From positions 1 through 64,000 of the IMG/VR virus record IMGVR_UViG_3300036766_000837: a DNA stretch of 64,000 nucleotides; one strand, 5' to 3'. The DNA comes from a virus. A model generated the notes under the pieces. The model ran no database searches, had not been told where the DNA came from, and saw only the letters and a list, made by a program, of their open reading frames with translations. Numbering within the stretch: position 1 is the stretch's first letter; every line of letters begins with the position of its first letter. Of the stretch, positions 2,098 to 2,795 are shown in pieces. The position numbers and the translations under genes were made by a program.

Positions 2098-2175
2098 TGG
2101 ACCGGAGGAGAGTCGAACTCCTGTCCCAAAGATTGCACTTTGGCCTTCATCTTTGGTCTAATCCATTACCGGCCC
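2098..2175 (-). ncRNA. Minimal tmRNA-like RNA (tRNA-like domain only, no mRNA-like domain)
   Basis: GGGCCGG/CCGGUCC-A acceptor with G3.U70; stemless D-loop UAAUGGAUUAGA; 8-bp P2 CCAAAGAU/AUCUUUGG; GAC linker; T-arm AGGAG-UUCGACU-CUCCU. Confidence 0.8.
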
Positions 2176-2180
2176 ATATT

Positions 2181-2265
2181 GGGTGATTTGGGGCTCTCGA
2201 AAGTTGACTAGAATTCACTACGGATTATGTATCTAGTATAATCCGCCAAGGTTGCCAAATCACCC
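2181..2265 (-). ncRNA. Structured RNA unit: three-way junction with kissing loops
   Basis: 11-bp terminal stem GGGUGAUUUGG/CCAAAUCACCC; hairpin CGGAUUAU/AUAAUCCG; loop ACUAGA complementary to UCUAGU in the next hairpin. Confidence 0.6.
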
Positions 2266-2272
2266 AAATTTT

Positions 2273-2344
2273 GAGGGTATCCTCTCGTTCCGTAGGAGCC
2301 TAGGCTACGGCGATTGCACCCGGTATTCCCTTTGGGATACCCCC
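2273..2344 (-). ncRNA. Structured RNA unit
   Basis: Terminal stem GGGGGUAUCC/GGAUACCCUC; inner hairpin CCGUAG/CUACGG. Confidence 0.5.
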
Positions 2345-2348
2345 AAGG

Positions 2349-2455
2349 TCCCCCTCCAAGGATTCGAACCTTTTGTGGCCACTAATTGGCTCAGGCACTC
2401 CTACCCTTGACGGTAATGAACCTGCCAATTACCCAACCATCTTTGGGAGAGGGGG
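2349..2455 (-). ncRNA. tRNA-like RNA with extended anticodon arm
   Basis: Acceptor CCCCCUC/GAGGGGG-A; D-like arm CCCAA-AGAUGG-UUGGG; T-arm AAGG-UUCGAAU-CCUU; long arm UAAUUGGC...GCCAAUUA. Confidence 0.65.
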
Positions 2456-2464
2456 TAAATATTT

Positions 2465-2568
2465 GGGGCCAAAATAACTTAGGCTCTAGGTTTCCCTGCC
2501 AAGCGAGGAGTACCGGGTCCTTTTCTTGGCCTTTTTATGCCCGGACCTGTTCCTGTTACTTTGGCCCC
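2465..2568 (-). ncRNA. Structured RNA unit: three-way junction with kissing loops (Alu-domain-like)
   Basis: 14-bp terminal stem GGGGCCAAAGUAAC/GUUAUUUUGGCCCC; AGGU/ACCU; CCGGG/CCCGG; GUAC turn; loops GCCAAG and CUUGGC are complementary. Confidence 0.6.
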
Positions 2569-2576
2569 AAACATTT

Positions 2577-2646
2577 GGGGGCAAATTTACCAGCAACTAA
2601 AGTTACTAGCTTGGTTACCCAAGACATAAAAGCCAAATTTGCCCCC
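2577..2646 (-). ncRNA. Structured RNA unit: two hairpins on a 12-bp stem
   Basis: GGGGGCAAAUUU/AAAUUUGCCCCC; CUUGG-GUAA-CCAAG (GNRA loop); CUAGUAAC-UUUA-GUUGCUGG with G.U pairs only on the minus strand. Confidence 0.6.
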
Positions 2647-2652
2647 ATGGAA

Positions 2653-2752
2653 GGGCATAATCCCAAACTCCTTAACGGCGCATCATCGTTATTAATTCTC
2701 GCAGGAATTAATTTCAATGAAGCAGGAGATATACCGCTTTTGAATTATGCCC
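2653..2752 (-). ncRNA. Structured RNA unit: irregular rod
   Basis: GGGCAUAAUU/GAUUAUGCCC, CUCC/GGAG, UCAUUG/CGAUGA and AUUAAUUC/GAAUUAAU nested helices. Confidence 0.55.
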
Positions 2753-2795
2753 AACCAAGGAGAGGGAAGAGCTGACTCTTTCCCGCCCAATATTA

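Follow-up and report, generated by a model that had tools for sequence, protein, structure and literature searches.

A predicted cluster of small structured-RNA genes in a phage genome, with a tmRNA reduced to its tRNA-like domain

Introduction

What does a phage encode in about 690 nt of DNA that hold no credible open reading frame (ORF) and are tiled by compact folds? The question is raised by positions 2098 to 2788 of the IMG/VR virus record IMGVR_UViG_3300036766_000837, the first 64 kb of which (64,000 nt, hereafter the window) were analyzed here; the whole record comprises 114,931 b and has an estimated completeness of 85%. An initial annotation of the window had described this region as a head-to-tail array of seven compact RNAs read from the minus strand, and had supposed that one precursor is cut into several small RNAs that mimic the transfer-messenger RNA (tmRNA), tRNA and signal recognition particle (SRP) Alu RNA of the host. 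Seven self-contained folds do tile the region; the 3′-most of them is a tmRNA that consists of the tRNA-like domain (TLD) only, and the fourth is tRNA-shaped and lacks an anticodon loop. With about even confidence, the stretch is read here as a cluster of small structured-RNA genes, organized like a phage tRNA cluster, lying on the minus strand and co-transcribed with the flanking early-type orphan genes.

Folding, strand and coding capacity of the array

All unit coordinates and folds given below refer to the minus strand. The seven modules are termed A–G and the hairpin at 2760-2788 is termed H; the closing-stem probabilities in the following list were computed within a 771-nt transcript with no span limit, and the z values compare single units with shuffles.

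2760..2788, minus strand: hairpin H, which directly follows the upstream gene's stop codon; probability 0.01
2648..2757, minus strand: unit A, in which a stem of 11 bp (core 2653-2752) encloses a long hairpin; probability 0.96, z -3.6 to -4.3
2577..2646, minus strand: unit B, 70 nt in length, in which a closing stem of 12-14 bp and three hairpins, one of them GUAA-capped, meet in a four-way junction; probability 0.69, z -4.9 to -5.3
2457..2576, minus strand: unit C, with an uninterrupted 22-bp closing stem and a branched interior of ~76 nt that includes a probable GAAA tetraloop; probability 0.995, z -3.4 to -5.4
2349..2455, minus strand: unit D, a tRNA-shaped RNA; acceptor-stem probability 0.89, z -2.9
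2271..2346, minus strand: unit E, a weak module in which a local 5′ hairpin is an alternative to the closing stem of 10-12 bp; probability 0.58
2179..2267, minus strand: unit F, with a closing stem of 11-13 bp and, inside it, a hairpin of 9 bp; probability 0.99, z -4.1 to -4.9
2098..2175, minus strand: unit G, a TLD-only mini-tmRNA (Rfam RF00023); probability 0.69, z -2.3

When 2096-2795 was folded with base pairs limited to 130 nt, the minimum free energy (MFE) reached -269.6 kcal/mol, against -200.0 ± 8.7 kcal/mol for 80 dinucleotide shuffles (z = -8.0). The MFE structure falls into eight exterior domains, which have the spans listed above, except that D and G are bounded as 2350-2455 and 2098-2176; the tiling seen by the initial annotation was thus recovered almost base for base. 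Among 328 overlapping 700-nt scan windows of the genome the array is the strongest outlier; the GC-corrected residual z is -4.9 when the array is taken with its own limits, -4.5 in the scan window nearest to it and -2.3 in the best unrelated one. Since a plain count of stems of at least 11 bp shows only ~4-fold enrichment in the array, the statistical case rests on energies and tiling, not on stem counts. Taken singly, units A, B, C, D, F and G stand above the noise (z -2.3 to -5.4), while E and H are not significant.

The units had been reported to be separated by A/U-rich spacers of 4-9 nt. These are present, yet they pair with one another, the upstream U's with the downstream A's, and in this way lengthen the unit stems, so that 0-3 unpaired nt are left between most domains and 6 nt before unit A. 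The flanking U's were also considered as an RNase P U(-1) signal, which was rejected because they pair with the downstream A's and because the genuine tRNAs of the phage show no U(-1) preference. The units are distinct from each other and are not repeats, as was initially stated: 2090-2800 holds 0 direct-repeat families and no internal BLAST similarity between units. A repeat-based RNA array, such as a type III antitoxin of the ToxI kind or a row of CRISPR-repeat mimics, is ruled out on these grounds.

Is it the RNA or the DNA that is under selection? For units A, B, D and G the minus-strand RNA folds 5-12 kcal/mol better than its plus-strand counterpart, units C, E and F are strand-neutral in fold energy, and no unit prefers the plus strand. 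This preference, to which G.U pairs and the GUAA loop of unit B contribute, fits selection at the RNA level and argues against a cluster of DNA-level palindromes. Of the features that had been proposed to favour the minus strand, T-loops occur only in D and G, and the GNRA loops are GUAA in B and, probably, GAAA in C. It is extremely unlikely, in our view, that the stretch is a DNA-level element (an origin, a packaging site or a recombination site made of inverted repeats) or that it hides small-protein genes. The position of the array, 2 kb from the contig end, would suit the former, but the G.U pairs of the stems become A/C mismatches on the other strand, the energies of four units point to the minus strand and of none to the plus strand, and a bona fide RNA gene, the TLD of unit G, lies within the row. 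As to the latter, one candidate can be named:

2587-2658, minus strand: mini-ORF of 23 codons (2658-2587) after an AAGGAG motif (9-nt spacing), reaching from the last part of unit A across the greater part of unit B

Translation of this mini-ORF is unlikely according to the predicted fold, because the AAGGAG motif and the AUG are both buried in the closing stem of unit A. The longest minus-strand ORF within the array has 53 aa, and a plus-strand ORF of 129 aa with a TTG start has no Pfam match, no homolog among 5.8 billion proteins and was not called as a gene there. A hidden coding frame was accordingly rejected, as no ORF in the array has a Pfam match or a homolog, and the region keeps its initial description as one with no credible ORF.

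In the Rfam 15 scan of 1900-3400 no SRP, GOLLD, ROOL, 6S or riboswitch family was matched at E <= 10, and across the window no GOLLD, ROOL or other large phage non-coding RNA family reached its gathering score. Only unit G lies above a cut-off; the other units show no more than chance-level matches at E <= 10. The supposed SRP Alu mimic has consequently been dropped, the loop-loop complementarity (6 nt) of unit F being suggestive at most. A separate observation concerns CUCCU, the core of the 16S anti-Shine-Dalgarno sequence: 2096-2795 has 5 copies of it on the minus strand, as against an expectation of 0.69 for 700 nt of this strand, and most of them lie within stems and face GGAG-type runs.

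Unit G, a tmRNA without a tag reading frame

The module with the firmest identity is the last one. Unit G matches the Rfam tmRNA family RF00023 with 51.6 bits (gathering cut-off 47) and an E-value of 4.7e-19, the match extending over model positions 1-374 with 304 interior positions deleted. Its 7-bp acceptor stem (GGGCCGG/CCGGUCC) contains G3:U70 and is followed by the discriminator A73, which together make up the alanine identity set; CCA is not encoded. Next come a stemless D-loop, GGAUUAGAC, a GGAC linker and a T-arm with the loop UUCGACU, and the place of the anticodon stem is taken by helix P2, closed by a 15-nt loop. The mRNA-like domain is missing: 11 nt are inserted where RF00023 has its 304 positions, and neither the tag frame nor the pseudoknots are present, hence such an RNA is unable to tag proteins. 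By its sequence, unit G is a tRNA-like-domain-only tmRNA, or mini-tmRNA, and the tmRNA mimic that had been postulated for this locus is found in it. ARAGORN with default settings calls no tmRNA at unit G. A complete or permuted tmRNA across the region was rejected, given that tmRNA_permuted scores 19.7 bits (E 0.15) and that the 'tmRNAp' calls of a relaxed ARAGORN run are noise.

Unit G is not alone. A structural pattern scan of IMG/VR gave 61 loci, 47 of which (26 distinct sequences) have complementary acceptor and T stems; with unit G the class amounts to 27 distinct phage sequences, and 14 of 16 class representatives pass the Rfam cut-off with 51-76 bits. G1-C72, G2-C71, G3.U70 and the motifs GGAUU.GAC, GGAC and UUCGA are invariant in all 27, and unit G has every invariant column of the alignment. 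Acceptor positions 4-7, the T stem and P2 each show 2-6 Watson-Crick or wobble pair types per position, and P2 played no part in selecting the loci. The covariation check that had been suggested for the array hence came out in favour of structure for unit G, whose acceptor, T and P2 stems covary across the class. Most of the 26 representative loci have a mini-tmRNA that is either isolated between two ORFs or part of an ordinary tRNA array. Pistol ribozymes (62 and 51 bits) were noticed ~2 kb from mini-tmRNAs on two unrelated phage contigs (L040:10682-10769 and L030:5916-6012).

Full-length tmRNAs are carried by the mycobacteriophage Bxz1 group and by Bacillus phage G, and two-piece forms by marine phages (PMC4131195; PMC9004378). 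Like unit G, these are phage-borne ribosome-rescue RNAs with an alanine-accepting TLD; they keep the tag reading frame and the pseudoknots, and unit G has neither. The closer precedent is phage DS6A, whose tmRNA was listed as 'TLD only' (Hudson et al., 2014, PMC4131195; also PMC11915505; tmRNA Website ID 11587). As far as found in the literature on phages, a tag-less tmRNA has been documented for DS6A only. We located the DS6A element, which is unannotated, at JN698994 28478-28560, within the 212-nt gap that precedes the gene for DNA polymerase III. With 43.2 bits on RF00023 it stays below the cut-off of 47, and for this reason the prototype is missed by gathering-threshold scans. DS6A infects Mycobacterium tuberculosis, an actinobacterium, and the host of the present phage is likewise inferred to be actinobacterial. 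Both elements have an acceptor stem with G3:U70, a tmRNA-type T-arm and a P2 with a short loop (20 nt in DS6A, 15 nt in unit G), whereas past the family core no sequence relationship is seen between them, and the DS6A copy stands alone in its gap, while the higher-scoring unit G is the last of seven packed modules.

Among the 11 long ORF-free flanks of other mini-tmRNAs that were folded, only one recalls the array. In L067 (contig IMGVR_UViG_3300015214_000095, 4925-5560, minus strand) a 633-nt ORF-free stretch with a z of -7.2 lies directly upstream of the mini-tmRNA, which is also the one most similar to unit G (P2 loop AARGCCRAAGUGCAA, 14/16 positions common), and a tRNA-Thr lies just downstream. 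The stretch includes a manA-like RNA that stays below threshold (28.7 bits, E 4e-5), together with an abiF-like match; its modules differ, and it is an analogue, not a homolog, of the array.

Could the whole row then be one uncut multi-domain non-coding RNA of ~0.7 kb, a new counterpart of GOLLD or ROOL that incorporates tRNA-like modules? Both of these RNAs are found in phages in the vicinity of tRNA genes, and they share with manA and with the array the character of long structured non-coding phage stretches that adjoin tRNA-type genes. With 0-3 unpaired nt between most domains the helices could stack, an unrestricted MFE fold adds long-range pairs between the ends of the region, and the structured stretch of L067 likewise stands ahead of its mini-tmRNA. 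Against this, the array has no Rfam match to GOLLD, ROOL, manA or any large RNA at E <= 10, each module is closed by its own long stem with high probability even without a span limit, which points to separate RNAs, and unit G is a full, self-sufficient TLD, the charging of which requires that its 5′ and 3′ ends be free. The long-range pairs would destroy the Rfam-supported fold of unit G, and because of this they are treated here as what they probably are, artefacts. We consider a single uncut RNA distinctly unlikely.

Unit D, a tRNA shape without an anticodon loop

The tRNA mimic of the initial annotation is represented by unit D. It begins with an acceptor stem of 7-8 bp, which is followed by A-CC, and has a D-like hairpin with GG in the loop and a T-loop, UUCGAAU. 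The anticodon arm, with its 5-bp stem and 7-nt loop, is absent and is replaced by an irregular rod of ~50 nt that consists of 8 bp, a bulge, 4 bp, an internal loop, 5 bp and a hexaloop cap. Unit D is not called by ARAGORN with default settings and matches neither RF00005 (Rfam tRNA) nor any other Rfam family at E <= 10; at relaxed thresholds ARAGORN makes a weak call of tRNA-Leu(GAG), in which 32 nt are inserted at position 30. When a covariance model of unit D (R1) was built, ordinary tRNAs aligned to it end to end, over positions 1-107, once the rod was deleted, which confirms the tRNA geometry.

The origin of unit D was sought in the phage itself and outside it. R1 detects no paralog in its own genome (self-control 135.8 bits), and derivation from a resident tRNA was rejected, since unit D has no similarity to the phage's own tRNAs. 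No match to R1 was obtained in 50 whole phage records, and a search of viral and GTDB contigs with the D-arm/T-arm pattern returned only hairpins upstream of ordinary tRNAs. A formal parallel is offered by the YrlA-type bacterial Y RNAs, in which a tRNA-like module sits on a long stem and which are bound by Ro60/Rsr. A long helical rod is joined to a tRNA-like element in both; in the Y RNAs, however, the rod extends the acceptor stem, whereas in unit D it replaces the anticodon arm, and the phage has no Ro60/TROVE gene.

The orphan modules

Units A, B, C, E and F match nothing in Rfam 15 at E <= 10 beyond chance level, and in the case of unit C the only match is MH_s10 with an E-value of 0.47. 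Unit B has an energy of -33.8 kcal/mol as minus-strand RNA against -21.9 kcal/mol as plus-strand RNA, a difference of 12 kcal/mol. The closing stem of unit C, the longest of its kind on the minus strand of the genome, is composed of a G/C-capped core of 14 bp (probability 0.995) and 8 bp contributed by the two A/U spacers (probability of the extension 0.89). Unit E, despite its weak stem, appears as a closed domain in the span-limited fold. Unit F might form a pseudoknot in the predicted structure, since the ACUAGA of its hairpin loop can pair with a UCUAGU further downstream. Hairpin H is doubtful as a separate element on the basis of the fold predictions, and it is not a canonical terminator, since no U-tract follows it.

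Flanking genes and the role of the array in its operon

The neighbouring genes are all co-directional with the array. The following features adjoin it:

2796..3164, minus strand: upstream gene for 122 aa, starting with TTG after the ribosome-binding site AAAGGAG; residue 25 was taken as the start by the gene caller
1790..2074, minus strand: downstream gene, a small Cys-rich protein of 94 aa, whose ribosome-binding site starts 12 nt after the mini-tmRNA
3254..3281 (about 3254-3262), minus strand: candidate extended -10 promoter, TGATATACT, read from the sequence, for a transcript of gene plus array
3354..3362: operator-like palindrome, TTGGTCCAA, 80 nt upstream of the candidate promoter

The 122-aa protein belongs to no Pfam or PHROG family and has no relatives in viral contigs; the 560-aa neighbour protein, too, is without relatives in viral contigs, and it finds only itself among 5.8 billion proteins. 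The 94-aa protein is likewise without a Pfam or PHROG family, and its nearest protein-atlas clusters are unnamed viral proteins. The promoter at 3254-3281, already proposed in the initial annotation, looks plausible by eye as an extended -10 element, but the consensus promoter scan does not list it, and the number of promoter-like sites (8 against 6.1 ± 2.8) is not above chance. The TTGGNCCAA palindrome has 9 sites in the 115-kb genome where ~1.8 are expected, the other eight being at 110.0-114.2 kb, inside or close to sequence of regulatory appearance. Of these eight, three lie at 112801-114233; the remaining five (110021-110669) are situated towards the opposite end of the contig, where 1 kb of AT-rich sequence carries GATTATAAT-like boxes and no ORF. 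Judged from this distribution, the TTGGNCCAA sites look like a shared operator or regulator site.

This setting raises the question whether the modules serve the operon mRNA in cis, as 'punctuation' for its processing and as stabilizing elements, the released pieces being by-products. The tRNA-like units (through RNase P/Z) and the long stems (through RNase III) would then separate messages, set their ends and block exonucleases. Such a role would agree with the location of the array within a string of co-directional genes and with no terminator after it, with the 12 nt that separate the mini-tmRNA from the next ribosome-binding site, with the sequence context of the genome's tRNA-Lys and tRNA-Leu, which is consistent with tRNA 3′ ends that abut start codons, and with the 22-bp stem of unit C, which has the size of an RNase III substrate. 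Yet seven elaborate and different modules over ~690 nt go far beyond what punctuation needs. Unit G, moreover, retains all alanine-identity and TLD-invariant positions, including G3.U70, which cleavage signals do not require, and, as a class, mini-tmRNAs are conserved among many phages that are unrelated to each other and in which their neighbours differ. We hold a purely cis-acting role to be unlikely.

The phage, its host and relatives of the array

Almost every long ORF lies on the minus strand, and the G+C content of the phage is ~40%. The record encodes a split DnaE-type polymerase, with Streptomyces phages as the nearest named relatives (~41% identity), a Ku gene and a gene of the WhiB family:

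29249-29419: WhiB-family gene (34.3 bits), in support of an actinobacterial host despite the ~40% G+C

The WhiB gene, the Ku gene and the relationship of the split DnaE to Streptomyces phages make an actinobacterium the most likely host, as far as gene content can tell. Among the phage's proteins no SmpB, CCA-adding enzyme, Ro60/TROVE or RtcB was found, therefore the RNAs of the array must use host partners. The record has 14 tRNA genes according to ARAGORN, thus the phage invests in translation RNAs. One of these, tRNA-Leu(UAA) at 28692-28765, is only 74 nt long and lacks the long variable arm normal for bacterial leucine tRNAs. Matches to HNH-endonuclease or 'terminase' PHROGs lie in the interior of a 1051-aa polymerase piece (37096-40251) and of a 751-aa helicase-like protein (44685-46940), which suggests, at the level of sequence, inteins or homing-endonuclease insertions.

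The Streptomyces phages to which this phage is related via DnaE are tRNA-rich. This background, together with the tRNA-related nature of units D and G and the weakness of unit E, might suggest a decaying remnant of a tRNA cluster, in which the mini-tmRNA and perhaps unit D are functional and the rest are drifting pseudogenes. Units A, B, C and F, however, have no tRNA motifs and no sequence similarity to any resident tRNA, and still show z values of -3.6 to -5.4 and closing stems of 11-22 bp; decay destroys such structure and does not create it. A remnant of this kind seems to us very unlikely.

Relatives of the array were searched for widely. No homolog of 1790-3300 was found by blastn among 50,697 GenBank phages. 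Word-7 blastn of the array gave no match in the 61 pattern loci or in its own genome, and only chance matches of 16-18 nt in the whole records of 46 mini-tmRNA phages. Of two metagenome pattern scans, one was empty and the other found only the L067 contig again. The phage itself is essentially a singleton, its closest DnaE relatives in IMG/VR having <=46% identity, and this accounts for the lack of homologs of units A–F; closer DnaE relatives (62-49% identity) are known from Logan assemblies. The array looks like a lineage-specific accessory region, because the 55 searched records of DnaE-relative phages are without a mini-tmRNA above the cut-off.

Possible function of the array

The initial annotation knew of no described phage locus with such a layout, a statement that was too broad. 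In phage T4, RNA C and RNA D (rnaC, rnaD) belong to the tRNA cluster, and a shared precursor gives rise to both. T4 encodes eight tRNAs together with these two non-tRNA RNAs of unknown function (PMC9697503), and the TLD-only tmRNA of DS6A is a second precedent (PMC4131195; PMC11915505). Both T4 and the present phage have tRNA genes of their own and encode non-tRNA RNAs in addition, the array being known from sequence and predicted folds. The two differ in that T4 adds two extra RNAs to eight real tRNAs, whereas the array has no decoding tRNA and comprises five orphans, a mini-tmRNA and an anticodon-less tRNA shape; by blastn, the array has no sequence similarity to any GenBank phage.

How would such a gene cluster work? 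The array would be transcribed from the minus strand together with the flanking genes, and host enzymes would cut the precursor into separate stable RNAs. Units D and G could be released by RNase P and 3′ trimming and then receive CCA, and long stems, that of unit C with its 22 bp being an example, could be cut by RNase III. A TLD-like molecule is reported to be a strong inhibitor of tmRNA, perhaps via SmpB titration (PMC4131195, citing Mao et al., 2009; PMC11915505). By analogy, the mini-tmRNA may be a competitor of host tmRNA, with SmpB and possibly also AlaRS and EF-Tu as the contested partners. Trans-translation would be damped or redirected during infection, and tagging would be blocked or blunted, as no tag is supplied. 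With the experiment cited in PMC4131195 as the analogue, SmpB competition would be the best-supported mechanism for unit G. Unit D may engage some tRNA-binding factor without decoding, and the five orphan modules may act as further stable RNAs; the build of all six is that of stable, compact molecules.

Several observations weigh against a cluster of separate RNA genes. Unit E (z -0.8 to -1.3) and hairpin H (z -1.6) fold no better than shuffles, and the unrestricted MFE structure swaps the closures of units B, E and G for long-range pairs. In the predicted fold the paired spacers leave little single-stranded RNA for cutting of the RNase E type, and no terminator or well-supported promoter bounds the array. 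No homolog of units A–F appeared in any search made (BLAST and Rfam for A, B, C, E and F, and additionally R1 for D); the case for the five orphan modules is a thermodynamic one, drawn from modelled folds. A mini-tmRNA above the cut-off is present in 0/55 searched records of DnaE-relative phages. With L067 as the exception, 10/11 long ORF-free flanks of other mini-tmRNAs are not unusually structured (z +0.2 to -1.6), so the array is no general companion of mini-tmRNAs.

A bolder version of the proposal may be formulated, which we regard as doubtful. The row could be an 'RNA toolkit', in which all seven modules are released as stable RNAs and each binds a different host factor of translation or RNA surveillance, i.e., a multi-decoy operon with five undescribed RNA families. 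The targets would be SmpB, AlaRS or EF-Tu for the mini-tmRNA, a tRNA-binding enzyme or an anticodon nuclease for the rod-bearing tRNA shape, and RNase III, RNase R or defence sensors for the long-stem modules. If true, it would amount to an operon for host takeover or counter-defence.

Concluding remarks

The locus is a real phage small-RNA cluster, unusual and partly explained: the TLD-only tmRNA is a known kind of molecule, while the row of seven modules without a decoding tRNA is a new form of phage tRNA/stable-RNA gene cluster, for which T4 provides the classic example. Phage structured RNAs other than tRNAs are barely charted. The tag-less tmRNA is not an oddity of DS6A, given that at least 27 distinct versions exist in phage contigs and show covariation, and interference of phages with ribosome rescue thereby becomes a testable and possibly common strategy. 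Which host molecules may the remaining modules meet? Five compact and very stable folds that belong to no family, placed beside two mimics of translation RNAs and in a defined setting for transcription, offer an entry point to the binding partners of orphan phage RNAs.

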